Shown here piece after piece: positions 6,882-32,442 of a stretch of DNA of 64,000 nucleotides. Origin of the DNA: Zootoca vivipara. Taxonomy: Eukaryota. The translations under genes and the position numbers were made by a program. The notes beneath the pieces were generated by a model. That model did not search any database. It saw only the letters and a program-made list of their open reading frames with translations, and was not told the DNA's origin. The DNA is taken from contig NC_083282.1 of NCBI RefSeq assembly GCF_963506605.1, forward strand, positions 47,430,001 to 47,494,000, in the 5' to 3' direction. Position 1 is the first letter of the stretch; each line of letters opens with the position of its first letter.

Positions 6882-6882
<1 letters not shown>

Positions 6883-6903
6883 CTAACATGAGGCACACTC
6901 CAG

Positions 6904-7307: not shown

Positions 7308-8245
7308 CACCCCAGTGCATGATTACCTGGGGAATAAATACCATAGGGTTGTGGTGGTGGGCATAGTGTGCATAAAAATGTAGCTTAAGTAGCATTTGAA
7401 AGTTAGAAGGTATTTAGTTAAAACAGAACCCCTTAAGTTCAAAGCAGGAGGACCGGGATTGAGGGTATTTCCAGATGGGAAGTTAATATTGTAAACGTGT
7501 CATTGAGATATTGCAAACAGATTTCTGGGAACTGTTTTTTGTTTTGTTTTTGTTTTGACTTATTAGAATTTGTCTAGAAAGGGTAAATGAAATGGGGAAA
7601 GAAATACAGGCTGGCATTTTGGGGCCAACAGTATGTGGATTCTAAGGATTGTTTGGCAAATTGTATATATTAGGCTAAACTTCATCCAAAAATGTGTTTA
7701 TTAGAATAAATTTGTACTAAAATGCTGGCAAGCTTTTATATATTTTTTCCATTGAAAATTGCAGTGGTAATGTGGAGTAGTGAATTTAAGACTGGAAAAT
7801 AGCCACTGAGAGAAACAAATTTGACATTCTTCATCCCAAGATGCAGAAAACTTGCATGCATGAGGAGCACTGATGCCCCAACAAGTCCCTGTCTGGAAGC
7901 ACCTTCAGTCTCTGAACAATTCAAGCTGAGGTTTTTTGGAACAAAGAAGACAGTATAGACAGGAACTACAATAACTAATCTGTCTGAACTTGCTGATGTG
8001 ATCAGAATAAGCACTCCTTCCCCGAAACAAAAATTGTCAACAACACACAGGAAAAAACATCAGGAAATACAAAGAAACTGGATTGCAATGGATATTTTTG
8101 CCCTTCCAAGTCAATGAGATGTTAAAGATAAGTAATTAATCTTAATGAGTAAGCAAGGTTATTATGTCAGCAGAACTGGAGATACAGAAAGCACACCAGA
8201 TGAGGTGCAGGTTCATGTCAAATCTGATAGTATTTGGTGGATGAT

Positions 8246-8448
8246 AAAAGACCCTGATGTTGGGAAAGATTGAGGGCACTAGGAGAAGGGGACGACAGAG
8301 GACAAGATGGTTGGACAGTGTTCTCGAAGCTATGAACATGAGTTTGACCAAACTGCGGGAGGCAGTGCAAGACAGGAGTGCCTGGCGTGCTCTGGTCCAT
8401 GGGGTCACGAAGAGTCGGACACGACTAAACGACTAAACAACAACAACA
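8246..8448 (+). mobile_element. BovB (RTE LINE) 3' fragment
   Basis: aagaccctgatgttgggaaagattgagggc...ccatggggtcacgaagagtcggacacgactaaacgactaaac(aac)n is the characteristic BovB 3' end. Confidence 0.9.
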
Positions 8449-9538
8449 AAAGAGCCATGCTTTAAAAAAAAGAAAAAGAGCAGCAGCTTTAAATACCTCA
8501 AAACTGGAGTGGGAGGCAGATGCACCATGTGCCATGAGTTGGTATTGTTGGGCGCCAGAAAAGGTCTACACCCCAACAGGGAGCTCACTGCTATCCCATG
8601 GAGACCCCTAGCTCTATCCCCTTCCTCCTTCCTATTGCTGCTGCCTGTTCAGTCTGCCTTCACTTACCTTCTTCCTATGTGTGCTTGTGTGGATTGGGTC
8701 CAATGGGAGACAGCAAGTAAATGGGTGGTGCCAACAGCATTAAGGAACAGGTGGTCCTGTTACATTCCAGTCTATGAAGATGTGGAAAAAATCAATTGTT
8801 TACTTTCTTACAGAACTATTCAAAAGTCTTAGAACACCTTCTCTACTACCCCCCCCCGAGTCCCCCCTTCCCCAAAGTTCTACCTGGTTTTCACTTACAG
8901 GGGAAATAACATATTAACAAACATATTAACTAACAAATCTTAGATTAAGGTAACTCTCAATCTCAGATTACCTTTCACAGGCCCACTCAGGGAGGCGGGG
9001 CACTGAAGGCATCTTGCCTAAGGGAACCCCAAAACATGGGGCCAGCGCTGCAAAGAAATTTAAATGAGTTCATTGCATTACTGTACACTGCAGAAATTGG
9101 TGGACAGATTCCATCTGAAGCTTTTTCTGTGAGGGTACCTGGAGATGTTGAATACAAGCAACAGGAGATTTTGTTCAAGTCCAGGGTAACTGACAAATCA
9201 GTTAAAGATTAACAAGTTCAAACAATATACATCCAAATTCTTAAAAAAAACTCAAATGCAAAATTCATCTTCCAACAAAAAGATGGGGCAATTGGGGCAT
9301 GCCACTAAAATAGACATTCCTATAAGAGAAGAGGAAGGTGGTCAAACTAACACCAATGTTTTAAAAAGGGCAGAGGGGAAAGGACAGAAAATATTAAGCC
9401 TCTTAGCCTAATATTTGTTTTAGGTAAACTGGAATAAAGCACTGTTAGATCATTAAATATATAGAAGAACAAATCATAGTGGATAAATTAAGAAATTCAT
9501 AAATATGAGAAAAATTAAGACAATTGAAAAATCCTTCT

Positions 9539-11422
9539 TTTTTTAATAATAATTTTTATTAGTTTTGTATAAACAAAGACAAAGACACACATAGAAAACA
9601 AACAAATAAATTTTTCAAATCTTATTTCTTAACATTGTATTTGTGACTTCCTTGAATCTCTTCTTCCTGATGTTCTTAGTATCTTAAACTAAATTATGGC
9701 GGATTTTCTAATCTTAACTCAAAATCTTTTCCTTAAAGTATCACTTTAACCTCCTCCTCCTTCTTGCCCAATCACCCGGGTCCCCTCCTGCCACGAGAGG
9801 AGCCCGTGAGATGCGGCCTTCCAAAAGAGATCCATTTTTGTGTCTGGGTTTCCCTCCCCCCCTCCTCCACCCTCAGAGCACCCCCTGCCACCAGGTGCTT
9901 CCGAGTAAAGAGAGGGAGAGAGGTAGCTCTCTGCCCAGACACCTATCTAAACATAACAATAATTATTACAAATCTAAATTTTCCTTCCCCAACCATTCTT
10001 CTTTCTCCCTCCAGAAAATTCAATAATTATATACAGTCATTTTTCTAGTCAGAATCTTAACATTTACTTTTAAACACTCTCCTTCCCCTCCCCCAATGTC
10101 ATTCCCCCAATTGAACCAACATTTCCTTTAACATGCCAAAATTTCAGAGACCGTTGTTCAGCCAACCTGAGTACCTTTTAACTAAAAATTTTATCCCACC
10201 CCCCGTCTTTCCCATTTCCCCTTCTAGGCCTCTGCCCCCCCCTCCTTCTGCATTTCCCACTCCTCCATCTTCCCACTCCAAGTTTCAGTCCCTCCAGGGT
10301 TTCTCTTTTCTTGCTTCTTCATTTCATTTTGTTGTTCATTGGCCTCATCTTCTTTCTTTTCAAATCCTTGTTGTGCCTCATCCAGCTCCTGTTTTTTATA
10401 ATCCAACTCAGTTTTGTCATTGCCTCTGTTTCTGACTCATTAATCTTGATCTGACAGTCAAAATTGTCCTTTGAGTCCTGCTCTTGTAGCATAATTTCTG
10501 TACATGATGAGCTGAAATGTTGCAATGTCTTCTGGGTGTCTTTCAGTATTTGCAGATAGTCTAACACTGCCTCCTGGAAGGCCAGGGCATAAGTTGTTTT
10601 CATTCTTGCTCTTAACCGCAAGCAGGCAGGAGATTAGGAGACAAAAGGCACTAGAAATTTCCTTCCTACTACACGATCGCCTCCATCTTGGCTGTCCTTT
10701 CCCATTGTTTTTAACTTGTCCATATATCAAATCCCATCAAATCCCAGTTCAGGTTAACTTAACTTTAAATTCTTCTTGTGATAAATTGTAGTGTTGCACA
10801 GCAGTTCAATATAATTGTCTGGTCTTTTAACAGTTTTGACAGCTTTTGACAGCTGTCAAAGCGCTTTCCCCCCAGCAATCTTGCTGGTCCTCAAGGGGTG
10901 CCGACTCCGGGAGACTGAGAAGGGCTGCCAAAATCTTCCTTTCTCTCGGGTTTCCCAATCATTCAGATTCCCTTTCGGCTTAGGGATAAGTGTTGCGCCT
11001 CTTCATTGATCATTAGGAAGAGATCGACTTCCATTTTTTAAATCTCCTCCTTCCCCCCCCCAAATTACGCCAAATTTATCTCAAAGTCCAATTGAAGATT
11101 CCACTTACTTTTTCCTTTAATTTTCTTTGGAAGAATCCACAGCTAACAGGCAGAAGACTCGAGGCTTCGCTTCTCGGAGGTAAGCTGACGTCCAAAATGG
11201 CTCCCGCGACTCTCCACTCCGCTGGCTCACAGGGGCTCTATTGATTCCCTGGGCAGCGGAGGAATCGCGGTCCGGAGCTCTGCTGGACCTGCGCCCCCAG
11301 GACGCTCTTCCCGGGGTTCTTTTGGGGAATCCGCTCGCCCTGCGGATTCCCCCCCCCCGCGATGCCAGGGACCTCGGAGCTCGATGTCACTGCGTCCTCT
11401 CGCCGGCGCTGCAGACCGGAAG
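9539..11422 (-). mobile_element. ~1.9 kb non-autonomous L1-like retroelement (CpG-rich 5' end, broken coiled-coil ORF, A-rich tail, no RT recognised)
   Basis: T-rich tail on + at ~9539; CpG-rich head 11160-11420 beginning CTTCCGG on the minus strand; overlapping Glu/Lys/Gln-rich minus ORFs 10224-10730; tccttct at 9532-9538 and 11423-11429 is a possible TSD. Confidence 0.6.
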
Positions 11423-13611
11423 TCCTTCTAAGAGCTCCTGCAGGCAATCTATTTATTGAGCATTTACCCTGAATTGATTGTGGGGTGTTTACACAACTTT
11501 TCAATGCATCTCTACATCACTTTCCTAGCCATAAAAATACTGTAATTTCTTTTCAAAAGTTGATTTGTTGTGCTAGGGCAACAGAGCACATTATACTTAA
11601 ATTTTCATGTATCCATTTGATTTCATCCTGCAGACTACTGCCCGTCTGGAGATGTTCTGAATGGCCACTTCCCTAGCAGACAGGCAAAGCTATTCTTCCC
11701 CCCTCTCTCCTTGACACCTTATCTCTGATACTGAAATTAATTGTTTCTCTAGGTAAGGTGCCTGCAAATTAACCACCCATTTAGCTTACATAATGACAGT
11801 TTTAGTTTGCCTCATTTATTTGCTGCCTTCAGGGTTGTTGGGTTGGGGTTTTTTTTTGTAAATGGGACTTAATACGAATGTTCACTAACTGAGAAGTTAT
11901 CTTATTTTCTGAGCAATATCTTATCTACAATATGTGAATAATCTGATTGGAGCTTCCCTCCTGGGTTAATATGGGCTTCAGGGTGGGAATTATTTTTGTC
12001 AGGATGGGGAAAGCGCAAAAACACCCTTCCCTACTCTTCTAATACTGTTCAGGGGTACAGGACCTCAGCAGGTATTTAAGCATGAAAAACTGTGCATATT
12101 AATTGCTTTGACACAATTAACTTCATGTGGAGTTCAGCCCTAAGTTTCACTGAAATAGACACGGGTACCAGAAGTGATGCTTAGACCAGCCTCAGCCTTG
12201 GGGCCTGTCTTGCCCTCTGGACTCTCTCCAGACCACACCTCTCACCCGCTCTGCTTCATGCCCTCCTTGAGTTTCTTGCTTTCCTGCAATGTGTCCTTGA
12301 ACTCTAATGTGTGTTTTGCATTTGCACTTATGTGTAACCAACAGTACAGGAAAGGCTCAGGCTCATTTTTTTAATGTCATGTGCAAAAATGCTCAACAGT
12401 CAGCAGAACAGGCATCTGCTGGGTTAATCCCTTAATAAGCACCACTCCTTTCTTTCCCTTTGGAGAACACTTCTGTGTAAACATAGGGGCAGCTGCCCTG
12501 AAAACATAGTTTTGCAAAACCTGCTTGCAGTCTGACAACAATAGCGGCAAAGGCAGGAACTGACCTCTCCTTGACCTAAGTCCAGATTAAGACACAGAAG
12601 GAATCTCAGGGTCTCTCTGGCAGAGTACACACATTTGCCTACGTATCTGAAGGCTAAACTCCAAGGAATAAATGAACAGGAATTGCTTCTCATCATCAAG
12701 AAGGCTGCTGCTATAACAACAAAGCAGAAACTGAAATATCTTGCTTGACTGGTTATTATGAGCTGTGTATAGTCACAAAAGCCACATAATGGAGAGGAAC
12801 TACAAATGGTGCAGTGGGAAGGGAGGAGGGAGGCTTGCTGAAGCAGGCAGTTTTTGCATCTCTCCAGGTTGTATAATTTTTAGCCATTCCTCACAAAGCC
12901 AAATTGCTGGGTGCTTCCAGACAGGAATTTATTGTGAGATATGTGCTGAAACTGGTGCTGCTCATGTTTTCACACACACCCCAGAGCCACACACCATCCT
13001 CAAAATGCTAGCTTGTACTTTTAAAACCTTTGATCCAGATTTCCATTTGCCATGGAAAATCCAATAAATAAAAACAACCCAATAAAATCTGCGCTCACTG
13101 CCGCCGCAGCTAAATACCATCAGCACACGTTTTTGGGGTGTGGCTTGTCACATGTGCAGTGACATTTTGGTGGGTAGTCTCTATCCTCACACGCAGCGCC
13201 AGCTAGATCAGGGTGGCAGTGTGGAGTTGACCTCCCTGCAGCGATGCCACTACCACACACTAGACAGGGACGGGAGAAGGTGGTGGTGAGGGTGTGAGAG
13301 TGTTCCTATAGTGTGTCCATGCTGCCCTGAACTCGGCTCCACCCTACAGCATCTTTCCAGCCCTGGTAAGTGGCAGTGATGCTGCTGCCAGTAGGCCACT
13401 GCTGCAGTGCCAGGGTGCCCCACCAGCACCCCCAACCACATTCCTACTTCAGTTTGCTCCTAAGCACACACTAGCCACTTTGTTTCTGGTGGCCCAGACA
13501 AAATGAGCATTTCCAGCAACTGCTGCATGCTGAAAGTACTTCTGAAATTTAAACAACCTAGTTTGTAGGAGCTATCCCCATGCAGCCCATGTGAGTGATT
13601 ATATCATACAT

Positions 13612-13961
13612 CAGGGGTCCACAGACTACGGCCCGCGGACCAGATGCGGCCCAATTGGCCTCCCAATTCGGTCCGCGACGATGCCCGCTGCTGCCGCCCG
13701 CTCTTACGGCACGCAGTGCGGCGGCGCTCTTCCAGGTCGGAAAAAAGCGCCAAAAATCGTTTGTGCGCATGCGTATGGGCCTCTCCCGACCCAGAAGAGG
13801 TCATTTCCGGTGCACTTCCGGGTCGGGGAGGCCCATACGCATGCGCACAAACGATTTCCGGCGCCTTTTTCGACCTGGAAGCGTGCCACTGTGCCAGTAA
13901 GTGTGTGTGCACATGCGCACGGGCGCGCACTCCGAAAGCCGGGTAAGTCTGGGGACCCCTG
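13612..13961. mobile_element. hAT (Charlie-like) MITE, 350 bp
   Basis: TIRs caggggtccacagact / agtctggggacccctg; 8-bp TSD tcatacat/tcatagat; CpG-rich with an internal inverted repeat. Confidence 0.85.
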
Positions 13962-14516
13962 TCATAGATTATAATTGCAATATATACATTATAAGTACAG
14001 TATATACAGTACATAGATTATAAGTGCAGTCCTTTCTTTTTAAACAAATTAATACAGCAATATTGCACAAAACATCTTTCTTACTCATGTGCAAGCTTAA
14101 GCCAGGCAAATACCACGATGGTACAGGTATTAATTAAAAAACCCAAAACAAATAGAAATAGGCATTACTCCAGTCTCCCCCCTAAAGCACAAGCCTCCAT
14201 TCTACCCATTGTGAAACATGGTAACAAAGTTTGGTATAACTTTCTCTTGCACTCTTCATACTTCCCGGGAATCATTTAAGGGTGTGTGTCTAAAGGTACA
14301 GAAACACCTTTACGTGTGCCTAAAGCAGAAGAAGGCAATGGAGGGCAGGGGAAACCCCTGGACACATTCCATCAGCCTTCACCCACTCATGTGGATGGCA
14401 AGTGGTAGAATAGCAACCCACATCCATGACTGAAAGATGGAAATGGATGGAAGCCAACATGTCAAATGTTCACATAAAAGAAATGGATCTGAATGATACA
14501 TTTACAATACAATATA

Positions 14517-14810
14517 CAGTGGTGCCTCAACTTACGAATTTAATCCATTCCGAAGGCACCTTCGTAGGTTGAAAAATTCGTAAGTCGAAAAGTGCCATTG
14601 GAAACGCAATTTCTCAAAGGAATGCATTGGAAATAGAAAAATTCTAAGTCGAAGCAATGCCATCTAAAAATTCATAAGTCGAAAAAACCCTATTTAAACT
14701 GCCACGGTTTCCGTTCGGATGTCGAGAAATTCGTAAGCGTGCGGCCATTTGCCCCATTCGTAATTCGAAAAATTCGGTTGTCGAGTCGTTCGTAAGTCAA
14801 GGCACCACTG
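14517..14810. mobile_element. Tc1/mariner (Tigger-like) MITE
   Basis: TA|cagtggtgcctcaacttacgaa ... ttcgtaagtcaaggcaccactg|TA. Confidence 0.85.
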
Positions 14811-14817
14811 TAATATT

Positions 14818-14877
14818 CAGGGAGTTGGACTAGATGACCCTTGGGGTTTCTTCCAACTATGCAATTCTATGATTCTA
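14818..14877 (+). mobile_element. CR1 LINE 3' tail
   Basis: gttggactagatgacc...ttccaac...attctatgattct, the CR1 terminal octamer repeat. Confidence 0.7.
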
Positions 14878-15559
14878 GAAGAACCCTAATAGGCCCAAAC
14901 TATATCACAGCTGCACTCTTTTATAGAGTGTTGGATACCGTCCAAGGCAGATCAAGCAGTCCAGTGTGGTTATAGATCCCTCCAGTGGTAGAAACTAGAA
15001 ATGTTGAGTGTACTATAGTGTTTACATTTCTGGTCTTGTGTGTGCATATTAACATTTATGCTACAGATTTCGCCATAGTTACTTCTCTCCAGGGAACCCT
15101 GGAAACTGATTCTATGAGACAACAAGGTTAGAGAAATCAGCTTTCTATGCACCACCCCTCACTAGTTTATAACACTAGTAAACAGGTATTATATTATATG
15201 TGTATTGGCATTTATTTATTTATTTTAAAAAACTTTTCCCCCACTTGAATGTTGGGGTGTGGGTGCTTCCAGACAACCTGTTTATTGAGCATAAGGGCTG
15301 ATTTGTTTCCAGGCAGATTAAACAACACTGGTTATTTAATGAGCATGCATGCTGCTTTGCTTGAGGGGAGGTTAGAAGACATGCTGTAAAAGCAAGAGTT
15401 ATCCAGTGGGCTTCCTTTTGTCACTTTATCACAAAAAGTCTGATTTTTTGGATAAGCAGATTTGTTGTACAAGATCAACTTTAGTTGTGCAACCTGATAA
15501 GTGATTGAATTCCACCTGAATAAAGCAATAAGTGAGCATGTTCCTATTCAACCAAATGT

Positions 15560-15770
15560 TTGGAAGATGAGGGGAATTTCCTGAATGCCCCAAACCCGGA
15601 AGTGAGTGTTCCAGCTTGTGAACTATTTTTGGAAGCCGAACATCCGAAAGGGCTTCCACAGCTTCCAATTGGCTGCAGGAGCTTCCCTCAGCCAATCAGA
15701 AGCAGCACTTTGGTTTCTGAACGTTTTGGAAGTCTGGAACAGATTCCGTTTGACTTCCAAGGTACGACTG
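15560..15770. mobile_element. Partial Tigger-like MITE
   Basis: Right end ttccaaggtacgactg|TA with internal ttggaag(c/t)c repeats; left TIR not found. Confidence 0.5.
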
Positions 15771-16609
15771 TACTTAGAAACAACCCTCCATTTTGTACTG
15801 GAGGTTCTTTTCTGGGAACTATAGAACAGGCTGCTTCTGTCACTGGCCTGGCAAAATACTAAAGAAAACAACAACATGGAAAGCAGTTATACAATAAGGG
15901 ACATCAGGGTAGTTTTAGCAGCACCAGAGAGCAGTCACAGTAAATTATACTATTGTTAATTAAGGGAAACTGTTTCCTCTCATACAGCTGGAGAAGCCAC
16001 CACATCCCTAGACCAGGGGATCCAGCCACAAAGTAATTCCCCACCCATTCCTAATGACACTCTGGTGTCAGCTATTTTGTGAGTGCTCTGTGAACCCTTA
16101 CAGAGAACACTTCACCCTTGGGGACCCCAGAGGGCAGAGCAAAAGGTGTGAGAGAAATTAAGGGAATGTGCTTCTTGCAACCAGCCTTTTTTTCAAATCC
16201 CCACAGCATATAAGACAGGGTGGAGTGTGTTTTATGCTTCCCTTCTTCCACAAAAGTTGGCTCTCCTTTGCATACTGTTTCCTGTTCTCTGCCAGACGGC
16301 AGCAGCTTTCTCTACACTAAAGCAGAAAGCAGAAGCGGGCTATGGGGTGGGGAGAGGAGAGGTTCAACAAAAAAGCAAAATGCTTGTTGGATGTACACAA
16401 AGAAAAAGCACAACACCCTCAGGGTGGAATTCTGCTTGCAGATCATCGTGAAATAGCACCATTTGTTTGTAGTGTTAACCCTGCCTGAAAACCCCCATGG
16501 TGTTCAATGGACAGGGCACTTATTTGATATTATTTTATTGTAAGCAAGAACACCCTAACAGACCCTCACAAGATGTGCAATCTGAATCACACAAGTACAA
16601 CACAAAAGA

Positions 16610-16765
16610 CATAGGAAGCTTCCAAATACAGAGTCCAGAATATTGATCCATCTGTCTCAGTATTGCCTATACTGATTGGCAGCAGCTTTCCAGGGTTTCA
16701 GGCAATGCGTCTTTGCTGAGGCATTCTGCATGCAAAACATACAATCCACCACTGAGCTATAGCCC
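16610..16765 (-). mobile_element. Degenerate tRNA-derived squamate SINE (Squam3-like); related copy near 28180-28360 (+)
   Basis: Minus strand starts ggctatagctcagtgg (A-box-like), continues ctgaaaccctggaaagctgctgccaatcagt and ends gcttcctatgt. Confidence 0.5.
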
Positions 16766-19267
16766 TTCCAGGAATACTGGCCTCTTCCACGCAGAAATAC
16801 CTTTTGTATATCCTTCAGGATTAATGTGTCATTCAGAATTAATGCAGACATCCATGTAAACAGTTGCACAAGTTTGCACATGACCTTTATGACTTGGTTT
16901 CTTGATCTGTGGGCAAACAGTGCCTACTGGGCACCTCCCTTCCTCCAGAGCCTTATTTTGGATCCTACCATGTCCCAAAGACAAGAGATGCCGATTCCAG
17001 TTAATATGTAACTGGCTTCCTTTACCTTTCACCTTTTCCACATTCACCCTCCATTTTCTTCGGCACCTGCCACTCCCACAGTACAGAGACTCAGGAAGAG
17101 AGAGCGCACACACGCAAACTGGCACGGTTCCTGAGGTAAATTATTTTTCTGCCTGCAGGGAAAATTTGGGGAAGAGTGAGAACCAGGCAAAGGTAATAAA
17201 CATTTTAAATTGCAGCAACCCTCCCTCATGGCATGACTCCCTGTGGTGTTTTTTTTTAGGGGGGGGGGGTTTCGCCTGACTCCGGCAGTGCCAAGTTGTC
17301 TGTGTGGAGGTAGGGGTGAAGTTGCCTTGGGCGTGGTTCAGAATTCAGAAGCCAGTCTTCCTCCTTTTTTAGCACAAGTTAAGCAATAATATGCTTCTGA
17401 GATTTTGTATGCCTTGGATACAACAGTGTGAACAAATGCTGTTTTCACTGTGTGTAAATGCAGCCTGCAGAATGAGTGCAGAATCTATCGTGTAGTAGTC
17501 CTGAAAGTTTGGCTGTCTTACAAAGGGCACCTATTAGAACCACCACATCTGCTGTATCTGTCTAGGCTCTTCTCTTCATTCATGATGTTCGCTTTGCTAG
17601 TCTTTGAACTCAGATGCTTGCCATCTGTCCTGTTTCTGTACGCTACTTGACACGCTCTGGCACTTAGCCATTCCCCTTTCCAATCTCAACGTGATCTTTC
17701 AATGTTCTACTATTCTTTTTAAGGGCCAAGGGTGCCTCCAGGCTGTTACTATTTTGCAGGAGGTATTGAAGTGCATACTCAGACTTTAGGGGCTTCTTCA
17801 CATTTGAGCATTATTTAACTGTTTGCTTCCAGCCCTGCCCAATTGGAATTAGATTGGAGTAGTTCACACCTGCACATATTTGAATTTGTGTATCAGGAGT
17901 AATTTCAGCCTTTCCCTTTCATACCCTTTTTTTGTGTGTCCCTGCCTTCTAATTTGTCGATTCCATTATATGCTGATTAAGTATTGACAGGGCATGCACA
18001 CAGATAACTTTCTGTGCAATTTGTGGTTTTGAAAAATTTACCTGCCCAAATCAGTCAGGCAACTGAGGTGTTCCTGAGCTGTGGGTATGCTCCTGAGGCG
18101 CTCTTATACTAGCTTGCTGGAAAAGAAATGAAAGCAATTGTAAATTCTCAGCACACTTTTCAGATTGCTGCCAAATACTTATGGTGTATAATTTTTAAAT
18201 GTAGTCTGTTTGTGCAGTTTTGTGGTTTGTGCAAATCTGGGGGACCAAAAGGGGGGGGGAATAATCCGTTCAGGAGTGCACTGGAAACAGTTATGAGGAC
18301 AGCTGGAAAAGAAATGTACATACTGAGGAAGTGGTAGGCATGGACAGGCGAGCAACAGAAAGTGACAACTGACTCACTCACCCCCAAACACGGAAAAATA
18401 CTTTATGCGACCCCAAGTGAATTCTCCCTATATTGAGTAAACCTGGATTTACTGGCGGGGGTGGTGGGGAATGCATCAAGTTGTGTGTTGTAAGGTCATA
18501 CCCTGTATGTAGTACACAAATTAAATGGGAATGCAAACGGCTGCAAACACACAGTAAGCTCCAGCATGCACAAGCTGTTTGTGCAATTAAAGTGGATTAA
18601 AGTGCTCTGTTGCCCTTGTGCAACAAATCCACTTTAAAAAACAACAGACCTCTTGAAATCTGAAAAGTGATAAGGACATGATTGGAAAAGAGTGGGATAA
18701 ACAAATGATCAACAAAAGATGTGTGAACATCTCACAAACAAATCAAGACGAATGCTCATTGTCATATAACCACTCAATAACAAGTCAGTATGAATGCTCA
18801 ACAAAGACCAGACTACCGTGTAAGCTTTGAATGTTGAATAAACACTTTATCTGGAGGAACTCAAAGCTCATGGTTTTTAGATCTTTTATTCATTTTGTAC
18901 TTCTTCCTTCAGTTTTCCTCTCCAACCTGATGTCTTGGCTTTAACTATGATTCTAATCCGCTAGAATGGAATCCTGATACCAAATTAGTTTCTGAAGGCC
19001 AGATACTGTACTGCAAAGTCCACCCATACAGTTCATGTGTGTGTGTTTGCCCACGTTAACTGTAATACAAAGGAATCTGCATTCACAGCCACGGAGTTGA
19101 AAGGCACCAGCATTTCTTAAGGATAGGGAAGCACCCTGAAAATTATTGTGCCATACCCATCCTACCCACATCACCCGCTTCTTACCATGGAGCAGGTCTC
19201 CAGGATTCTTGTGTCACCAACTGTGCCATGGCATTCCTCCCTTTCTTTTACAGTATCCTGAAGCAAA

Positions 19268-19354
19268 ATGAAAGATGCCTGGTACTTCTGGGTCTCCAGC
19301 ATGCTCTGGGTATGGTCTGTGGCATCAGGACATCCCTGCAATATTGACAAGCAG
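19268..19354 (+). CDS. C1orf210: C1orf210 coding exon 1 (signal peptide MKDAWYFWVSSMLWVWSVASG, start of LRRNT)
   Basis: Acceptor ttcttttacag ending 19253, aaaATGa at 19268, donor CAG|GTAAGC; 29 codons. Confidence 0.75.
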
Positions 19355-22300
19355 GTAAGCAAGATATACAGTACATCTGTATATAGTGAAGAATACTGTA
19401 ATCTGAAAATTCTGCATCCTGGAAGATCTTGACCAGTTTATCTGATTAAAGGTTGGCTGTATGGGATAATCTCCAGATTTTTTCAGTTCCACTTCCTACT
19501 TTTTTTTTAAAAAAAGTTATGCATTCTAATTATGTTCACAATAAAAAAACAATTAAAACATAACTATTGTACAGAGGCTAACTCTTCTAATGGTTGTTAT
19601 TTATATATGATAATGAACACTGTCATTAACTGTGTCTGATCCTGATCCAAGGCTCAAAAGTCAGTGAAAGGGAACTTACTTCCAAGTATGTTTGCACAGG
19701 ATTGCAATTGTAGTGAAATAACTACTCCAGACATAGCCTGGATTTAACTAAACTGGATCAATATGTGATTTAGCTATTCATCTTTTTCAACACTAATCCC
19801 CATACTGATCCCTGCTACTCTAAAGGGTAGATTGGGGAGATTAACAGGGTCAACATGAGTGCAGCCCAAGTGAAGGGTTGGTATGCATAATCTCTGCGTA
19901 ATTGATTTTGCCAGTACTCATTTATGCATTTCCAGTATGTCACTAACCTATGTGCAGGAAATGTCAGCTTGCTTCAGCTTTAGAGCACTCTAGTTCAAAT
20001 TTAACACTTTTTTAAAACTTACATGAGATGTTGCAACTTGAAAAACATGGTTATTTGCTAACAGTAGCATGCAAAAGCAGCCTTAAATTTGAGCATCTAT
20101 ATACTTGGCAGTAAGTCCCAACCACTTTTCAGGTGAAGGCAAGCTGCAGAAGCTTTTCTGTCACCCAGTAGCTTAATGATTCTGTTAGGGAAAGATCTCA
20201 ATCCAAACTAATTTGAATTATGATGCTTTAATGTTTTGAGGTTTCATGCCAGTAGTATGATTTTTCACAGGGATGGGCAGCCTGCAGTGGAAAGAGCCTT
20301 CTCCATGCTCCAAAATCTCTTCCCAGACATATCACCAACCTGGACCTGTCTTTTAACTCATTGATAATGCCCAGACATGGAACATTTCTGAGAAGCTTCC
20401 CTTCTCTGCATTCCCTAAACCTCTCCAGCAATACCATTCCTACTCTCTATCCTGGCCTCTTTTGTAACCTGGGTGCTCTCCACCTCTTGGATTTAAGCAG
20501 TTGCAGCATTTCCAACATGCACTCAAACAGCTTCCTGGGCTTGAAAAACCTCCACATACTGCTCCTGAAAAACAATAAGCTTCAGTATCTGGAACCCTCT
20601 GTGTTTCCTGTCCCTGGAAACCTTGTCCATCTGGACCTACAGGACAATGAGCTGTTATATTCAGATGAACTTGCTCGGTTACTTGTGGAAAGAATCCACC
20701 ACGTTGAGCTTCAGGGGAATCCCTGGGTGTACAGTGCCTCCATCACTCCTTCCCGACAGGGACTACAACAAACAGAAGGTGAATCAAGCAATGGGAAGTG
20801 GGTTGTTGAGTGGACAGTACTCAGATCATGGAGCTCCCATTACTCAATGTTCAAAACAAAACAGCAGTAGGTTGCATCCAACTAAGTTCTACTCAAGAGT
20901 AAAATGGGTCTACTTTTAATAGGACTAATGTTGTAAACAACCCAGTGTGTGTGTGTGTGTATGTGGTTCTCTGGGTATGATAGCAGTTTATAAAAGGGCT
21001 AGTTAAAAAAAAGCAAAAACGGAAACCGGCAGAGCAGTGGCCTGTCCTCTTCAACCAGGCTGTGCGTTTGCCCATATGGAATTCTATACTGTATGCCCCT
21101 GCTAGAGGCATACAATGGGAAAACATGCACACAGTCTCTGATAATTGGTTTCTAAATAATAAGATTTAAAACTGCTGTAAAAAAGAGGATACAAAATAGA
21201 ACCGATGGAGGGCAGGTTTTCAGTGTGTCACTGATTACACCCAATAAGATGTGTTCATGACAAGCTCTCTACACAACTGCAGTATTTCTGCTTATATTGG
21301 GGAAATAGAGGCTTGATTTCCGAGGAAATGTGACTGTTTTCAACAGACTGAGGAATAATCCCAGGAAACCAAGTCGATTTAGGCAGTTTTGCCTCTCATA
21401 AAACCTTCTAATATGTGTATTATCCCAATAGAATGGACCTAGGATGGAAAATAAACTGTAATCTCTCAGTGTGAATGGACACTAACAGCTTTTGTGTCCT
21501 CTAGCTGAGCTGATCCATGATTCACACCTAGAGCTCCAGACTAAAGAGATTACCGGTAGTACTCTGGACTATCAGGACCACGGACACAGAAGAAAAGTGA
21601 GGGTCCCTCGGGATGAAAATTCAGCTAACCTGACATCTAAAAATTACAGTAAGTGAAGCAAAACCACTTCCAGTGTGTCACCATTTTCAGGTGGGATTGA
21701 ATAACATACCAGCAGATTCAGGTTTTAATTGATGTAACCCACCCTGGGATCTTAGGGTGAAGGGTAAAGGTAAAGGGACCCCTGACCATTAGGTCCAGTC
21801 GTGACCGACTCTGGGGTTGCATGCTCATCTTGCATTATTGGCCGAGGGAGCCGGCGTATAGCTTCCAGGTCATGTGGCCAGCATGACAAAGCCACTTCTG
21901 GCAAACCAGAGCAGCACATGGAAACGCCGTTTACCTTCCCGCTGTAGCGGTTCCTATTTATTTACTTGCATTTTGACATGCTTTCGAACTGCTAGGTTGG
22001 CAGGAGCTGGGACCAAGCAATGGGAGCTCACCCCGTCACAGGGAATCGAACCGACGACCTACTGATCAGCAAGCCCTAGGCTCAGTGGTTTAACCCACAG
22101 CACCACCTGGGTCCCTTAGGGTAAAGGTTAGGCAATAACTAAACAAATAAATGTAGATTGGGAGGTCTTGAACAACAAAGTGCTTCCCCCCCAATACTGG
22201 ACTTTTTGTGGTTAGGAAAGTGATGAGAAAATGCAAAGGAAAGCATGGCATAACACTTGCTTGACCTAATGGCATATAACCTCCTTGCAAACAAAACTGT

Positions 22301-24568
22301 ATGAGTGTTCAAGAAATAGCCAATGTCATCTAACCTCTCAGAAACCTTGGGGCAAACAAATCACGACAAACACTCAATAAACCGGGGGTCCTTCTGATGA
22401 GCTATAACACCCATTTTATAATTTTTGCATTTGACATTTTTTCTCCACCGAATCCAAGAACCATCACTCACTGGTGTCCCCCTATGAGAGCTTTCTGTGA
22501 GAATGAATTAGAGTTGCAGTCACCAGTGGAAACAGCATGTGTTAGGGATGCCAATTCCTGCTCGTTTTTTGCTGATCCAAGCATACTGAGATGATTTGGC
22601 AGGGTCGACAGAGGTATCCCATTCTGATTAAAATCATGAAGGGTAACTCTAAACCATGGTGATGAGAAATGTTTTTAATGACATGCTTCTTTCTGTGTTT
22701 CCTGCAAGGGCGTACCCACCGCGGGGCAGGGAGGGGCCGCTGCCCTACTCTAGAGGCAGGGCCGGTCGGGCAGCTGCGGGCAAGAGTGGCGCTGCCGGCG
22801 GGGCTGGTGGGCAGAGGCGGAGGACAGCCCAGCGGAGCGCGAGTTCGGCGCCCGCAGCAGTCTCTTGCGCCCGAGCCGTGCGGAGTCCACACAGCCGCGC
22901 TGTGTGGGAGGGGGCAAGGGCTGACGCTCCCGACGTTCGGGAGACCTTTGCGCATGCGCAAAGCGGGGCGCATGCGCACAGCGCGGCTGTGGACTCCGGC
23001 GGCCGCCGTGCAGGGCGCATGCGCACAGCGCGGCTGTGCTCAAAGGTCTCCCGAACGTTGGGAGTCGTTCAGCGCCTGCCAGACCGCTGCAGCAACGGAG
23101 CCTCGGATAGCTTCGCGGAGGCCGGGGCTTTGCTCCAGACCTCCGCGGAGGCCCCGATCCAAGCCTGGTTCCCTTCTCTCCCCCCCCCGCCCACCCCCAG
23201 ACTTCCCTCTTCTCCTCTAGGCGGCCGCTGGTTTTCTCCCCTTCGCCGCCGTCGCTTCAGGTTTATTTTGATTTCACCTGGGCTCTGTAGCCCCGCCCAC
23301 ATTCCCACTTTGTGTCCCCTCCCCTCCCGTGCCTTGGCCCCGCCCCTTGCCCCCCCTAGTTTTGATCCTGGGTACGCCCCTGGTTTCCTGTTTACCAGCA
23401 TTGTTGCTCACAACAGTGCTATATGAAAGTGAGGAAATCCTTCCTGATGGTGGTGGTGCTTGCAACAGTCATTTACAAATGAGATAATTAGCTGATTCTA
23501 GCTACCAGCTTCCACACAGTTATTAGCTTCTTACAATGATGATCCCAAGGCAGGCAAAAAACCTCAAATCACCCCAACCCTAAAAGAGCCAAATCTCTAT
23601 GAATGCCTTGATCCACAAATGAACAAGGTAGAATTTTAGGCTTTGTTTTCCTCTAGATTAGTTAGCTGGGGCTGGATCTGCAGATTGCCTTCAGCAAACT
23701 TTCTTCGAGTCACATTGTGCTGCGTTTTATGCCACTGTTGTATTAAGCCAATATTAGATAACCTTGTAGAAGGGAAGGATCAGGCACGGCAGGGCAGTGA
23801 CAGGCTCCACTGTAGTCCCTGACTCAGTGAATGAAATGCTTGCTATACTACTATGTCGACATCATTAACTTCCAATTTCAGATTGATATGCTTAGCCCAG
23901 GAATGGGTGCCATTTGCCAGGGAGAGTAGCTCCTATCTCCAATGACCTGCCGCTGTACTATTTTCCTCAAAGAAAGGACATAGGACTATGGTTTTCCCCT
24001 GTTCACACCTATTAAGAAAAAATACAGGTGTACCATGCAATTCAATGCATGTTTACTCACTTCAGTGGGATTTATTCCCAAGTAAGTTTTTACATAGGTT
24101 TTTAGTCAAATATATTTCCTGAATGAGAACATTGGTAGTGAGTATTTGAATTATGCACTAGCTTTCCTTTCCTTTGCAGCCTCTACTACCACACTTCCCC
24201 CTGGAAAAGTTGCTCATAGCTGGCCATACTTTGCTGCATTTGTGCTTTCGGCTATCGCCATCTCCATTGTGATTGCGTTGGTTGCTAAATGCAAATTGTT
24301 CCAGAGGAACCGTGCCAGCTACAACCATCAACGGCTGCCTGATTCCCGCTCCATTGGAAGCAGCCATGCTGAGGAAGCTGACATGGATGTGGCCTATGAG
24401 AGGAACCAAGGCATCCCTAGAGTAGCTGGGTGTCCTGCAGAAGATGATGATGGTTTCATTGAAGATAACTACATTGAACCCAATCAAGGCTTGCAGGAAG
24501 AGGAGGAGGAGGAGGAGGTGGTGGCAGAGGAGAAAGAAAATGAATTGGAACCCCATTTCAAACTTTGA
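19268..24568 (+). CDS. C1orf210: C1orf210/TEMP orthologue with LRR ectodomain (LRRC19-like type I membrane protein), 375 aa; join(19268..19354,20271..20778,21505..21648,24180..24568)
   Basis: All junctions GT-AG and phase-compatible (0,1,1); 1128 nt open frame. Last exon has SWPYF-TM-AKC...ASYxH...EDDDGFIEDNYI...HFKL, which matches TEMP/LRRC19 tail motifs. Position between TIE1 and TMEM125 matches human C1orf210. Confidence 0.85.
20271..20778 (+). CDS. C1orf210: C1orf210 coding exon 2 (five LRRs plus GNPW cap start)
   Basis: ITNLDLSFNSL, LHSLNLSSNTI, LHLLDLSSCSI, LHILLLKNNKL, LVHLDLQDNEL, IHHVELQGNPW; acceptor tttttcacag, donor AAG|GTGAAT. Confidence 0.85.
21505..21648 (+). CDS. C1orf210: C1orf210 coding exon 3 (stalk with RRKVRVPR)
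   Basis: 144-nt open phase 1-1 exon; acceptor gtcctctag, donor ACA|GTAAGT. Confidence 0.7.
21764..22114 (-). mobile_element. Sauria SINE, near full length
   Basis: (GGTAAA)n tail followed by gggacccctgaccattaggtccagtc...ttaacccacagcaccacctgggtcc; TSD cttagggtgaagg (21751-21763) / cttagggtaaagg (22115-22127). Confidence 0.9.
22705..23382. mobile_element. Young GC-rich hAT-type non-autonomous DNA transposon, 678 bp
   Basis: TIRs caagggcgtaccca / tgggtacgcccctg; perfect 8-bp TSD gtttcctg at 22697-22704 and 23383-23390. Confidence 0.88.
24180..24568 (+). CDS. C1orf210: C1orf210 coding exon 4 (TM helix and acidic cytoplasmic tail)
   Basis: Acceptor ttcctttgcag; WPYFAAFVLSAIAISIVIALVAKC; EDDDGFIEDNYI; stop TGA. 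Confidence 0.92.
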
Positions 24569-26739
24569 GGGGATATTAGGAACCAAGCCCCAATTTTTCA
24601 TATTCTCCAATACCATATCACCCCGTTCTCTAGGAGCTTCCAGTTATCTCATACTTGTTACAGATTCTCCTACCTGCTCTTTGGCTTCAGACCAATATCT
24701 GATCTACAACCCTTAGCTTCTTGCCAACAACTACATTTCCCCGTTTTCTGTACACTGAACTGCAGTAGCTTCTCAATACATTTCATTTGTGTAACTGTGA
24801 GGTTATCCATGGATTAGCTCCCACATTATTGTGTACTAGACTGCTGGCTTAGGCTATTGAAAGACAGAATTTTAATGAACCCAGCCCACTGTGGAAGCAG
24901 TTTTTAAGTGTAAAAAAACCCAAATTATGTGTTGTTGCCCCAGCAAACACTTGATCAGATAAATATTCAAGGTACATGAGGAAAAGCTGCATGTAGTAGA
25001 GGTGGGGAGAATGGTGAAGAACAGCTTTTCTTAAACTGATGCCCTCTAGATGTTGTTGGACAACTCCTATTGCACCCAAGCTAGTGAAGAGGAAGAGCTG
25101 CACTGATGCACTGATCCACAGAAAGAAGCCAGACTAAAAAGTAAGAAGTCCAGACTAGCAGCCATCATTACAATGTTTATGCATAGCCTCTCTCTAAAAC
25201 CAGTGTCAAGTTTCTTAATTTTGTAGTGGTTCCAACATATTTCAAGATGGAGTGGAAACTGTGAGAAGAGCCTTGCTGTAAGATTTTTGGAAGATATGTT
25301 GCCAACATGTGGAAGAGAGATGTGCCTAAACAAAGAAGTTATTCTAAGGATAATACAGGAATGTGCTAGGAGGGACACTTTGTTCATTCATATCTTGTTT
25401 ATGGCCAAAACTTTTTTTTAGTGTTGCCTGTGATAAGTGAGAAGCCCATATACAGTGCTGCAGGCAAGTGGTTCTAGGATGCATCTCTTGCAAACTTTGT
25501 AAGAATGAGTTCAAAACAGAAGCAGAATTACAAGGAGCATTGCAGCATCTCACTTTCTGCCGCCACTGGCATCAGTCACACCAGCAACACTGCTTGGACT
25601 GGGGCAGAGGTGTGCTTTGCTATCTAGGTTTTGTTCCATACCCTGGGCTGCACATTTGTACAACCAATGTATATAATTCCCTTATACAATCTCTTTTATC
25701 TGTGTATCAAATGATATTTATGCTTCCTGGTAAGCCATCCACTCTGTGCTTGGTATAACTGAATTGAGAACTGCCCATTACAGTGGCTTAAGAAATGTAG
25801 CAGCAATCCTTCCTCTTACTAATTTCTCAATACTGTATTCTTCCTTCTGATTGTAGTTTTCTTCAACTACCAGTTGACCACTTCCATGATTTCATCAAGT
25901 GTTCAGCTTTAGAACCTCTCCTGTTTGATGCAAGATGTTCAGATGGCAGTGCATCATAGGCCCTTCAGATTGTGTGGGCATGTATAGCTTTTTGCCAGTA
26001 CTGAAACCACAATGATTTCACTACTGGAGTCTCCTGTTTCTCATGTCTGCTATCCTTTTCTGCGGATGACGGCAAGGTTGCTTCCATTGCAGCCAGGAGT
26101 TTCTCCATCCTCCTATGTGAGGGCTTTGTAGCAGGATCAAGCAAAGGAAACAATGGCACATATTGTAGAATCCGGTACTGTATAGCCTCATAAACTCCAA
26201 ATCCTACCTTAGTGCAAAACAAAAAATCTTGCCCCATTTGCTGTTTCAATTCCTTCCTGATATGGCAATGTTAACCCAGTGTTGTTTGGGGTGAACTGAA
26301 TAAGGCTTTGGGATCAGAGAAGGCAATGTTTCCCAGTATGTGAACATCACCTTTATTACAGTGACTGTATCAATAAGAAATTGCTCATTTAAGTGATATG
26401 AAAGTATTTTGAGGATGAAATACAGGGGAGATTTGAATGGAAATTATCTCCACCAGAATCTGTGCAGTGGTGTGGCTGTTTCATAATTAAATACACTCCA
26501 GTGTTTTTAAATGAATGAGAATATTGTGAATTTAACCCTGAAAATAGGATCATTTGGGTGTTTATTCTCTAGGTTTGTAAGATTGTACACAGTGTTTCCC
26601 CTTTGGCCAAAAAAAACATTGGGCTGCACCTTCTCTTTACCACTTCTCTACAGCAAGGGAATTCTGTGAAAATACCAAGACTCCACATTATGGCTTAATC
26701 AGATACCATATTTCAGCTTGTCATGCAGTATTGCTAGAA

Positions 26740-29605: not shown

Positions 29606-30405
29606 GCCATGAACACAGTCTTAACAGTGAGTCCGTAAGTGACAGTGGAGGCCAATCCTGGATTCACACATCCTTCCACAGTGGGGACATAGGTTTCTGG
29701 GTTGGAATTGTTCACGGTGAGGGTTTGCAAAACATGTCTTCCTCTTAGCTCGTTTCTCCCTTTCATCCTGAGTTCGAGCGACTTTGAAGTCCATGACAGC
29801 AGCTGCCCAGCCACTGAACTAGGGCTCTTTACCATTATTCCCCTTTCAGAGGTCTAACATGGGGCAAAGTTCTCTCCCTGCACCCCCCCCCCAATATTTT
29901 TTCTGGTTCCATTGTTGTAATCTACGCATGGCTTTTGTGCTTTTTCCTAGACTGAAGTTCTACACTGGTGCACGAAACGTGTAATATGCCAAAAGCCCAT
30001 CTCTGCTTGCTTATGTTTGACCAAGTGTTATTCTCTCCAATCCCTTCTCCAGTTCCCTTGTGCTACAGCACTGACGGCGGTAATTTTATTTCCAGTTCCT
30101 TTGGCTCCCTAATCACAAATCCTTATTTATATTACTGACTGCAGTCCTATCTACATCTGTTCAGAAGTAAGCTCCATCCAGCAGGACTTACCTTCTAGGT
30201 GAGTGCATAGGGTTGTAGTCTTGAGTTACATTTCCACCTCCCTTTCAACAGCTCTTGGAATTAGTAGGCAAAGAACTAGCTAGGTTTATTGACACAACTT
30301 CTAAACCCACCCACCTCCGCTTCATAGCTGTTGCAAGACCCAGTTTGGCCATGCTGATTGTCTCTTGTTCTGTTTGTAGACCGACCAGGTCGACCAGACA
30401 AGATC

Positions 30406-32442
30406 ATGGCAACTCAGAGTTCCACGTCCCTGCAGGATTTGATTCGGGAAGATTTTTTGAGTTGCAAAATCTGCTACGACCTGTATGTGGTGCCCAAAAT
30501 CTTGCCATGCCTGCATACCTACTGCCAAAAATGCCTAGAGCCCTTGGTAGAAAATGGGACCATACAGTGTCCTGAGTGCCGTCTGCAGTCGGAATGTCCT
30601 GGAGGTTCTGTGGGGCTGAAGACCAATTTCTTCATCAATGGCCTCTTGGAACTGTTCCAGATGAAGCGCAACAAGGACCTAGAGTGCACAATCTGCTCTA
30701 GTGCTCAGAAAGTTGTGGCTGCCACTGCCCGTTGCCTGGATTGCAAGGATTTATTGTGCCAAATATGTTCCCAGGGCCATTGCTGCTCCCGCCTCACACT
30801 ACACCATAAGGTGGTGAGCCTGGAAGAGTTCCTTGCTGGGCATTATGACACTGAGGTAAGAGTCTTGCAGGAAATGTGGTGCCAAGATCACCCACAGGAG
30901 GCGCTCCGTTTCTTCTGTGATACCTGCAGCATGTCCATCTGCAGGGATTGTCGCTTGCTGGACCATTTCCAGCACAAAGTGGTTTCCATGTCCAGTGCAG
31001 TCCAGCGGGAACGACCTACTGTAGAGCAGTTGATCAACAGCTTGCAGGGAACAATTACCTGCATCTCTGAACAAGAAAAAGCTGTGGAGGAGGCAATGGA
31101 CAAACTAAAAGTAGAGAGTGAACGTGTCAAGGAGAAGATCTGCAAGTATGTGGAAGATATCACTACTTACATCTTTGCCCAGAAGGAATGTGCTTTGACA
31201 AAACTGAATGTCTTCTTAACAGAACAGCTGGAGCGTTTTTGTTTAGCACAGAAGGAGCTGCAGAGTCAGAAGGACAAAGCAATGAATACTCAAGAGTTTT
31301 CTCAGCGTATTCTCTGTGTTGGGAAGGACTATGAGATCCTTCACCTGGAAGGAATGATCAGGAATAGAGTTGAGGAGCTTCGGGCGCACAGACTGCCACA
31401 ACTCCAAAGTCAGATTCCAGAATTAGCCATCGCCTGGGATGAGCCACAGCAACTCTCTGAAGCATCAATTTTCAGTCTTGTCTTTCCTGGGGAGCAACCC
31501 ACCAGAGATGTGCAGCAGTTGGAGCTGGGCAGTGAGTCATTGACGTCTCTGGGCGAGGAGAGTGGGGAGGTTACAGGCACTCCTTCTGATTCAGATGAAG
31601 ACTCCTTCACAAGTGAATCTGACTCCCACTCTCAAAGCTCTTCTTCCTCCACTGGCTGCAGCAGAAGAGCAGAGTATGCCTACAGCTTTGACCAAGATCC
31701 ACCCCACACCAAACAAAAGCCTAATATCACTGGGATTTCTTTCATGCATCACAGTGGTCAAGTCGTCCTTTTGGATCAGGCAAATGCTGAGATAAAGCAA
31801 TATAGCTACGGTGGCGACTCTGAGGGGGTGATTCCTTTGCCTACATCTGATTCTGTCTTCTATGGCATCGCTGTGTGTGGAAAGATCCTGGCCTGTTCCT
31901 CAGAGACTCATCTTTTTTTCCTGAATCTTGATGGATTGGTCCTGCGTAAAGTGCAGATGAGGGGCTCTGCATTGTCCTATCCCCTTGCCTCATATGGAGA
32001 CTCTTATGTGGCTGTTAGTGAAGGAACTCTCTGTTCCATCTCATTGTACAGCCCATCTGGGGCATGTGTTGGCAGAGTCCGGCCAGACAACTATTATGGG
32101 GGGAAATTCCTGTTCATTGCTGTAAATAGCTGGGAGGAGTTTGTTGTCTCAGACTTCATTAAGAAACAAATTGTGGTCATGAAGAAGTCTGGGATTGTTC
32201 TGAATGTGCTTAAGCCCTCAACCTCACTGCTGACCAAGCCATTTAGTGTCTGTGTTGATGAAGACAGGAACATTTTTGTGATTGATCAGTTCAAAGTGAT
32301 ACAGTTCTCGCCAGATGATGAGACTGGGAAGGTCGTGTTCAGTGGCCAGTGTCCAATGGGAAGACCCAGAGTCTTGGCCATTGATAGTAATAACCTCTTT
32401 ATAGCGAGGGAAGATGGAAACACTAATGTCTTTTGGCTATAG
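30406..32442 (+). CDS. TRIM56-like E3 ubiquitin ligase (RING, two B-boxes, coiled coil, Ser/acidic linker, NHL-like beta-propeller), 678 aa, single coding exon
   Basis: ATG in atcATGg context just after a splice acceptor. DFLSCKIC, LPCLHTYCQKCL, CPECR, KTNFFINGLL, ATARCLDC, HPQEALRFFC, EILHLEG, PNITGI and PRVLAI motifs parallel mammalian TRIM56; no filamin domain. Orthologue versus paralogue is unresolved, so no symbol is given. Confidence 0.9.
   Translation: MATQSSTSLQDLIREDFLSCKICYDLYVVPKILPCLHTYCQKCLEPLVENGTIQCPECRLQSECPGGSVGLKTNFFINGLLELFQMKRNKDLECTICSSAQKVVAATARCLDCKDLLCQICSQGHCCSRLTLHHKVVSLEEFLAGHYDTEVRVLQEMWCQDHPQEALRFFCDTCSMSICRDCRLLDHFQHKVVSMSSAVQRERPTVEQLINSLQGTITCISEQEKAVEEAMDKLKVESERVKEKICKYVEDITTYIFAQKECALTKLNVFLTEQLERFCLAQKELQSQKDKAMNTQEFSQRILCVGKDYEILHLEGMIRNRVEELRAHRLPQLQSQIPELAIAWDEPQQLSEASIFSLVFPGEQPTRDVQQLELGSESLTSLGEESGEVTGTPSDSDEDSFTSESDSHSQSSSSSTGCSRRAEYAYSFDQDPPHTKQKPNITGISFMHHSGQVVLLDQANAEIKQYSYGGDSEGVIPLPTSDSVFYGIAVCGKILACSSETHLFFLNLDGLVLRKVQMRGSALSYPLASYGDSYVAVSEGTLCSISLYSPSGACVGRVRPDNYYGGKFLFIAVNSWEEFVVSDFIKKQIVVMKKSGIVLNVLKPSTSLLTKPFSVCVDEDRNIFVIDQFKVIQFSPDDETGKVVFSGQCPMGRPRVLAIDSNNLFIAREDGNTNVFWL

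Follow-up and report, generated by a model that had tools for sequence, protein, structure and literature searches.

Within the 64,000-nucleotide stretch of the Zootoca vivipara genome analyzed here (the window; NC_083282.1, positions 47,430,001 to 47,494,000) lies the lizard ortholog of C1orf210, whose human product we take to be 113 amino acids (aa) long and which is also called TEMP. The original prediction had proposed that four coding exons on the plus strand (Table 1) splice in frame into a 375-aa receptor with leucine-rich repeats (LRRs), and its coordinates, GT-AG ends and frame were all borne out, with exon phases of 0/1/1 and a product of 375 aa followed by a stop. Pfam matches exon 2 to LRR_8 (E 3.6e-17) and exon 4 to LRR19-TM, PF15176 (E 7e-8), a family built around a transmembrane (TM) segment. 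The mammalian protein is type III and lacks a signal peptide; lizard TEMP has spliced N-terminal exons, a predicted signal peptide and LRRs. The lizard N-terminus, a predicted helix at residues 2-20, is weakly hydrophobic (Kyte-Doolittle 0.68) and Trp-rich, and it aligns with the clearly hydrophobic N-termini of birds, turtle, sharks and fish. The suspicion that automated annotation might already hold the model was also correct, given that an existing NCBI model named TEMP matches the 375-aa protein letter for letter, with its domain content already computed. Because of this identity, and because annotations of LRR-bearing long forms span sharks to birds, the gene model is routine annotation, already in databases, and is neither new nor lizard-specific. 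What is already known thus comprises the gene model (databases), the shared TM family (Pfam) and the shared tail motif (noted in 2012). The name "type III" on the NCBI model is inherited and is wrong given the predicted signal peptide.

Spliced reads over the exon junctions had been proposed as the check on this model, and they were found. The splice check covered 8 of the 22 listed sequencing runs, from four organisms, and exon junctions were seen in seven of the eight; the Logan runs among them are presumed, not recorded, to be RNA, and their contigs omit the introns exactly. All three joints occur in a single 804-nt contig of run X2, while raw stranded RNA sequencing (X20) gave 3 reads across junction 2 and 5 across junction 3, and raw RNA sequencing in X21 gave 5 reads across junction 2 plus 3 loose ends matching the start of exon 4. 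Junction 3 is present in X1; X3 contained exon pieces, and no exon joint was found there. In each of X4, X7 and X9, which come from the three other organisms, one contig spans the joint between exons 2 and 3 and is preceded by the exon 1 end, and the contigs of X7 and X9 additionally run into the start of exon 4. Skipping of exon 2 (19354 to 21505), seen in one of the eight runs, is out of frame and meets a stop after 31 codons; the skipping reads use the same exon 3 acceptor as the full transcript. This skip is possibly regulated unproductive splicing. It has no usable in-frame ATG, and it is the kind of transcript that could yield a mammal-like short protein if exon 3 gained one. In chicken, an NCBI isoform drops most of the LRRs with the frame kept. 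A single-copy stretch of intron 2 (21084-21412) shows stranded read depth near the exon level in X20 and is covered by a contig in X4; it may be a retained intron or an alternative start, with no in-frame ATG there.

The neighborhood and the sequence place the gene in the C1orf210/TEMP orthogroup. On the minus strand, between 1 and 23 kb to the left of the window, are TIE1 exons, oriented head-to-head with TEMP; TIE1 exon 1 probably falls within window positions 1-19000. TIE1 was found by searching with all open reading frames (ORFs) of the TEK region, having been missed by the Ig_Tie2 family, a kinase-family scan and single-exon tblastn. To the right of TEMP, beyond TMEM125, are minus-strand exons at 52673-62863 whose ORF text looks like CFAP57, with no match from Pfam. 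TEMP accordingly sits between TIE1 and TMEM125/CFAP57, as C1orf210, a neighbor of TIE1 and TMEM125, does in human, and it carries both the PF15176 TM segment and the tail motif DDDGFIEDNYI.

The closest relative of TEMP in the lizard genome is LRRC19, which lies on the minus strand of contig C16 with a TEK immunoglobulin (Ig) exon on the plus strand some 55-62 kb apart, again head-to-head. Lizard LRRC19 also has four coding exons with phases 0/1/1, namely a signal exon (a 69-nt candidate), an LRR exon of 511 nt (508 nt in TEMP), a stalk exon and a TM exon; where its exon 3 ends is predicted, as is its exon 1. Among 82 matches of TEMP exon 2 in the genome, LRRC19 was the best non-self match (E 2e-16), and no third paralog closer than LRRC19 was found; a PF15176 genome scan recovered LRRC19 and missed TEMP's own exon, so that scan gives no grounds for excluding a third paralog. 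A tree of 29 rows, built without P0222, P0223 and P0045 because these were overlong or redundant, groups 26 long TEMPs, ranging from shark to squamate, in a single clade (84/82) that approximately follows species order and excludes the one LRRC19 row. Tie1 and Tek are described as a two-gene vertebrate subfamily in a genome-duplication paper (PMC4898815). The proposal that C1orf210 and LRRC19 are paralogs beside TIE1 and TEK thus held up on the shared phases, the best in-genome LRR match and the head-to-head arrangement of both pairs, and the two are likely ohnologs, a judgment that covers one flanking pair and no cyclostome. TEMP and LRRC19 share a signal peptide, LRRNT, five LRRs, TM helix, SYxH motif, the DG-F-I-E-D-x-Y-I motif, exon phases, a TIE-family kinase neighbor and the lack of a TIR domain. 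LRRC19 differs in that it keeps a four-cysteine cap and a TRAF6-type motif, ends two residues after the tail motif, has EDG and KY in place of the DDG and NY of TEMP, and is only about 27% identical to lizard TEMP. This relationship would allow the "dark" human protein C1orf210 to be read as a cut-down twin of the gut immune receptor LRRC19.

The original prediction had lizards keeping a second LRRC19-like receptor; the long form is no peculiarity of lizards and occurs in every non-mammalian jawed-vertebrate group that turned up. A protein search returned 45 matches combining LRRs with PF15176 in lizards, snakes, birds and teleosts; a further search added turtle and many more birds, and long forms were also recovered from sharks, reedfish, bichir, paddlefish, gar and one Logan protein. 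The long form makes up a 248-member cluster in the protein atlas. In a representative-sequence search, giant LRR proteins dominated and about a dozen family members appeared among 150 rows. By sequence, many bird entries misnamed LRC19 belong to TEMP (54-64% to swan TEMP), and database names mix both paralogs. No mammalian sequence appeared in three protein searches, one of which gave the best 120 of 864 matches, nearly all birds, and is therefore uninformative on mammals.

The statement that mammals lost the ectodomain rests on the mouse protein (2610528J11Rik), which is 111 aa long and type III, with neither signal peptide nor LRR, a TM segment at 30-50 and a conserved N-terminal sequon (PMC3901140). 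The same work, by Aturaliya et al. (2012), described expression of mouse TEMP in gut and kidney and its location, for the mouse protein only, on early and recycling endosomes as well as at the plasma membrane, noted a motif common to TEMP and Lrrc19 that was left uncharacterized, and found orthologs in mammals only. Long TEMPs from sharks, fish, turtle, birds and squamates contradict that last statement, which corrects the only dedicated TEMP paper: TEMP is neither mammal-specific nor ancestrally type III. The mammalian and lizard proteins retain in common the TM helix, the EDDDGFIEDNYI motif, a membrane-proximal N-glycosylation site and the neighbors TIE1 and TMEM125. We considered that the short form could be ancestral, with LRR exons gained in non-mammals, or that the long model could be a chimera of two genes, as the exclusively mammalian orthologs of 2012 and the UniRef short models for reptiles and birds might suggest. 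However, single contigs tie the LRR exon to its neighbors in four organisms, intron phases match LRRC19 at all three positions, the long forms follow the species tree, those UniRef short models that were displayed lack a start Met, the Logan ones result from ORF calling on the final exon, and no in-frame ATG for a mammal-like short isoform exists in lizard exon 3 or in the preceding 450 nt of intron. We regard this alternative as practically discounted.

AlphaFold2 places five LRR strands in lizard TEMP, with a predicted local distance difference test (pLDDT) score of about 86-96 across residues 21-140, and LRRNT and the five LRRs fold well in lizard and swan alike. The lizard protein has the LRRNT cysteine pair C24/C34 and a solenoid of five repeats, and Foldseek matches of its model (TLR4-variable lymphocyte receptor [VLR] hybrids, Slit2 and VLRs) are ordinary capped LRR domains. 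The four-cysteine LRRCT cap is missing: lizard TEMP is cysteine-free between residues 108 and 283, exon 2 continues after NPW at the LRRCT entry without CxC, and pLDDT in the cap region is 30-39 in lizard versus 64-77 in swan (swan residues 181-210). Pfam gives a weak LRRCT match in swan and shark and none in lizard. The cap motif NxWxCxC was absent from all 22 squamates and all 8 teleosts, and present in 98 of 99 birds (long proteins), the one turtle, 4 of 8 basal or unnamed rows and the one LRRC19; it follows the last LRR in birds, turtle, sharks, paddlefish and LRRC19, with further cap cysteines where the stalk exon is modeled. A membrane-proximal sequon (at most 30 aa from the TM segment) is found in 46 of 46 complete long forms and is approximately what the mouse stub retains. 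The claim of a full LRR receptor with ancestral architecture is therefore supported for the long form itself and, as worded, not supported for the squamate version: because the cap cysteines kept by birds, turtle, sharks and LRRC19 have been lost, squamate TEMP is itself derived and partly eroded and not an intact ancestor. We infer that the ectodomain has undergone erosion on at least three occasions, with the tail motif spared. Such repeated cap loss would offer a clean natural series for the dismantling of a receptor ectodomain.

Neutral evolution of the LRR exon (dN/dS, the ratio of non-synonymous to synonymous rates, near 1) had been named as a result that would speak against the receptor; the measured value was about 0.2, indicating constraint. 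Exon 2 changes were taken from 39 of 42 listed differences and gave 27 distinct changes, 17 of them synonymous and 10 non-synonymous (dN/dS 0.19-0.24, p 2e-5 to 3e-4), and both within-species variants in exon 2 are synonymous. The LRR exon is under purifying selection. This bears on the possibility that the squamate ectodomain is a decaying relic en route to the mammalian state, for which one could cite the loss of cap cysteines in 22 of 22 squamates, cap and stalk that are only about 40% identical among them, in-frame indels in exon 3 between close species and, in one library, abundant skipping of the LRR exon with loss of frame. In addition to the low dN/dS of exon 2, LRRNT and LRRs are 71% identical among squamates and 60% identical to birds, and the frame is open in gekkos, skinks, iguanians, snakes and lacertids; decay is thus largely refuted for the LRR exon, and we consider the idea very improbable.

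The tail is where conservation is greatest. It reads DDDGFIEDNYI in 174 of 180 tails, the other 6 differing by one to three residues, and identity is 86-98% across the motif versus 12-68% in the flanking tail. Within it, residues 336-341 match the pattern DDG-phi-x-D/E, with E in the last place, in a region predicted to be disordered (pLDDT below 50 over 295-348). Among the other proteins compared, 426,752 residues in all, the strict pattern DDG[FY]x[DE] has a single occurrence. A Protein Data Bank (PDB) sequence search with the tail gave no match. DDG-phi-x-D is the non-phosphorylated beta-TrCP motif of CDC25A/B (DDGFVD in CDC25B); a CDC25B AAGFVA mutant loses beta-TrCP binding, and DEGYSE is also degraded (PMC10487276, PMC9606124). 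Since DEGYSE works too, E should be tolerated in the last place of the motif. In an interactome compilation, the partners listed for human C1orf210 include BTRC, FBXW11, SKP1, CUL1, SPAG9 and PTPN1 (PMC10298883, Table S3). Counted over rows that are mostly birds and not independent, there are 19 lysines in the 7943 residues between SYxH and the motif, and 160 of 179 tails are lysine-free in the 20 aa before it. Because the tail around the motif is almost lysine-free, TEMP would act more as an adaptor or decoy than as a substrate; juxtamembrane lysines remain, and ubiquitination for sorting could occur there. We take the motif tyrosine to be Tyr-94 of the human protein. Human Tyr-94 is phosphorylated (PMC4865363), and the motif tyrosine is a possible switch or second docking site.

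Collectively, these features suggest that TEMP is likely a membrane-bound adaptor of the SKP1-CUL1-F-box (SCF) ligase acting through a predicted beta-TrCP site, DDGFIE. The DDG-phi-x-acidic core with its acidic flank resembles that of CDC25A/B (DDGFVD in CDC25B), and HIV-1 Vpu, like TEMP, crosses the membrane once and has a short, acidic tail. However, CDC25 is a soluble substrate and Vpu requires phosphoserines, whereas the predicted site of TEMP would be constitutive and would sit on a membrane protein of the host, and, unlike either, non-mammalian TEMP carries an LRR ectodomain. If the motif binds beta-TrCP, TEMP and LRRC19 would be linked to the ligase controlling IkB and beta-catenin in the epithelium of gut and kidney. 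The predicted site also makes the role of the shared, uncharacterized tail motif testable by a single mutation.

On balance, we think it probable that TEMP is an LRR-receptor ohnolog of LRRC19 whose ectodomain has been eroding in several lineages and whose tail motif is a predicted beta-TrCP docking site; the history is well supported and the mechanism moderately so. In this scheme, the TEMP/LRRC19 pair would have arisen together with TIE1/TEK in a vertebrate genome duplication, from an ancestor with a signal peptide, LRRNT, five LRRs, LRRCT, stalk, TM segment and tail. The outside would then have eroded three times: teleosts would have dropped the cap region, squamates would have lost the cap cysteines, and mammals, having kept only the last stretch of the stalk with its glycosylation site, would have become type III. 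DDGFIE would serve as a constitutive DDG-phi-x-D/E beta-TrCP site through which TEMP may act more as an adaptor or decoy, like HIV Vpu, than as a substrate, and the LRR domain, where kept, would select a membrane partner or ligand.

Several observations weigh against this interpretation. The degron match was made post hoc, and the TEMP motif ends in E where the published consensus has D. The conserved stretch exceeds the degron, as DNYI with its tyrosine follows, and because conservation outlasts the degron another partner must matter. The partner list is a high-throughput compilation of unstated depth and concerns the human protein only (PMC10298883). A literature search, with subscription journals and most interactome supplements (e.g., BioPlex and degron screens) outside its scope, found no paper tying the motif to beta-TrCP; such a link may already be contained in those sources. 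In X21, 8 reads placed the end of exon 1 before exon 3 (consensus agreement 0.85), versus 5 reads joining exons 2 and 3; because LRR-exon skipping breaks the frame and soon leads to a stop, part of the mRNA encodes no receptor. Support for the TEMP clade is moderate, with long branches and one LRRC19 row, and the shark protein scores almost equally to lizard TEMP and LRRC19 (150 versus 145 bits). UniRef- or Ensembl-type entries include short models (91-124 aa) from crocodile, turtle, tuatara, birds and Podarcis, although these are probably projections of the human model, and the protein searches yielded no sequence from mammals or a named amphibian and no long form from crocodilians or tuatara.

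We also considered whether TEMP could be a second epithelial microbe sensor of the LRRC19 type, with LRRs that bind bacterial ligands and a tail that signals via TRAF2/TRAF6 to NF-kB. TEMP shares gene structure and fold with LRRC19, which acts via TRAF2/6 without a TIR domain and needs its ectodomain for NF-kB activation (PMC4742566) and for which flagellin binding has been reported (PMC10763354); mouse TEMP is found in gut and kidney (PMC3901140), and such a role would be compatible with beta-TrCP recruitment given that beta-TrCP degrades IkB. The PxExx[aromatic/acidic] TRAF6-type motif of lizard LRRC19, however, is found in only 12 of 179 TEMP tails and 5 of 27 squamates, the TEMP ectodomain is only about 27-32% identical to that of LRRC19, and a dedicated sensor should resist the repeated erosion described above. 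We therefore hold a sensor role to be unlikely. Rather improbable, in our view, is a primary function in trafficking, in which JIP4/SPAG9 or kinesin light chain would let the tail link microtubule motors with early and recycling endosomes, and ligase binding would be secondary turnover. Overexpressed mouse TEMP shifts early and recycling endosomes to the periphery and nocodazole reverses this, a phenotype obtained by overexpression in HeLa cells (PMC3901140), and SPAG9 is among the listed human partners (PMC10298883). The sequence DNYIE/Q resembles the Y-acidic kinesin-light-chain motif of JIP1, but that motif depends on a free C-terminal carboxylate located two or three residues past the tyrosine (PMC6214655); because it must be C-terminal it fits TEMP poorly, where no terminal D-x-Y-phi-D/E is found, the motif is internal, 30 aa from the end, and the +2 residue is E only in most squamates and Q elsewhere.

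Returning to the adaptor interpretation, a wider version can be offered tentatively, as possible though less than probable: TEMP and LRRC19 could be overlooked host "Vpu-like" adaptors in which the LRRs pick a ligand or client and the constitutive DDG motif brings SCF-beta-TrCP. Teleosts, squamates and mammals would each have lost the sensing domain of TEMP independently and in steps, and what remains in mammals would be a ligand-independent adaptor or decoy for beta-TrCP on endosomes of gut and kidney. If true, this would supply the missing signaling step of the TIR-less LRRC19. In the literature searched, with most subscription journals outside its scope, no account was found of long TEMP, of TEMP and LRRC19 as ohnologs or of cap loss.

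Table 1. Features of the TEMP locus and its neighbors (window positions unless a contig is named)
Feature	Coordinates	Strand	Description
Coding exon 1	19268..19354	+	87 nt; predicted signal peptide (residues ~1-21), first LRRNT cysteine C24; phase 0 end
Coding exon 2	20271..20778	+	508 nt; LRRNT C34, five LRRs, degenerate LRRCT entry; phase 0 to 1
Cap remnant spanning exons 2 and 3	20712..21584	+	residues 177-225; four cap cysteines all lost; pLDDT <50 from residue 180
Coding exon 3	21505..21648	+	144 nt; remaining cap remnant and stalk, N-glycosylation sequons N240 and N245; phase 1 to 1
Coding exon 4	24180..24568	+	389 nt; transmembrane helix ~261-283, juxtamembrane KCK, SYxH motif, tail, stop; PF15176
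Tail motif DDDGFIEDNYI	24443..24475	+	residues 335-345; holds DDG-phi-x-E and conserved tyrosine; near-invariant
3' untranslated region, transcribed	24569..26500	+	reaches at least 26500; poly(A)-type hexamers first occur at 26486 and 26744
TIE1 exons, Ig domain to kinase end	NC_083282.1 47407200-47429100	-	left of window
TMEM125	36785-37510	-	Pfam; right of TEMP

Other features were observed around the two genes. Between TEMP and TMEM125, an uninterrupted 694-codon ORF on the plus strand (30358-32439) encodes a RING and a B-box of the TRIM type, with a probable coiled-coil and C-terminal repeat region; we know of no TRIM-type gene at this place in human. The surroundings of LRRC19 (C16:5966000-5982300) contain a GC-rich tandem repeat in intron 3 and a fragment of a long interspersed element (LINE) ORF, and a long terminal repeat (LTR) retroelement with a 1009-codon open frame lies upstream of the first coding exon of LRRC19. 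Intron 3 of TEMP holds a very high-copy, transcribed interspersed repeat (21763-22110) resembling a short interspersed element (SINE), which we take to be the Sauria SINE, and a second, GC-rich repeat at about 22700-23400.

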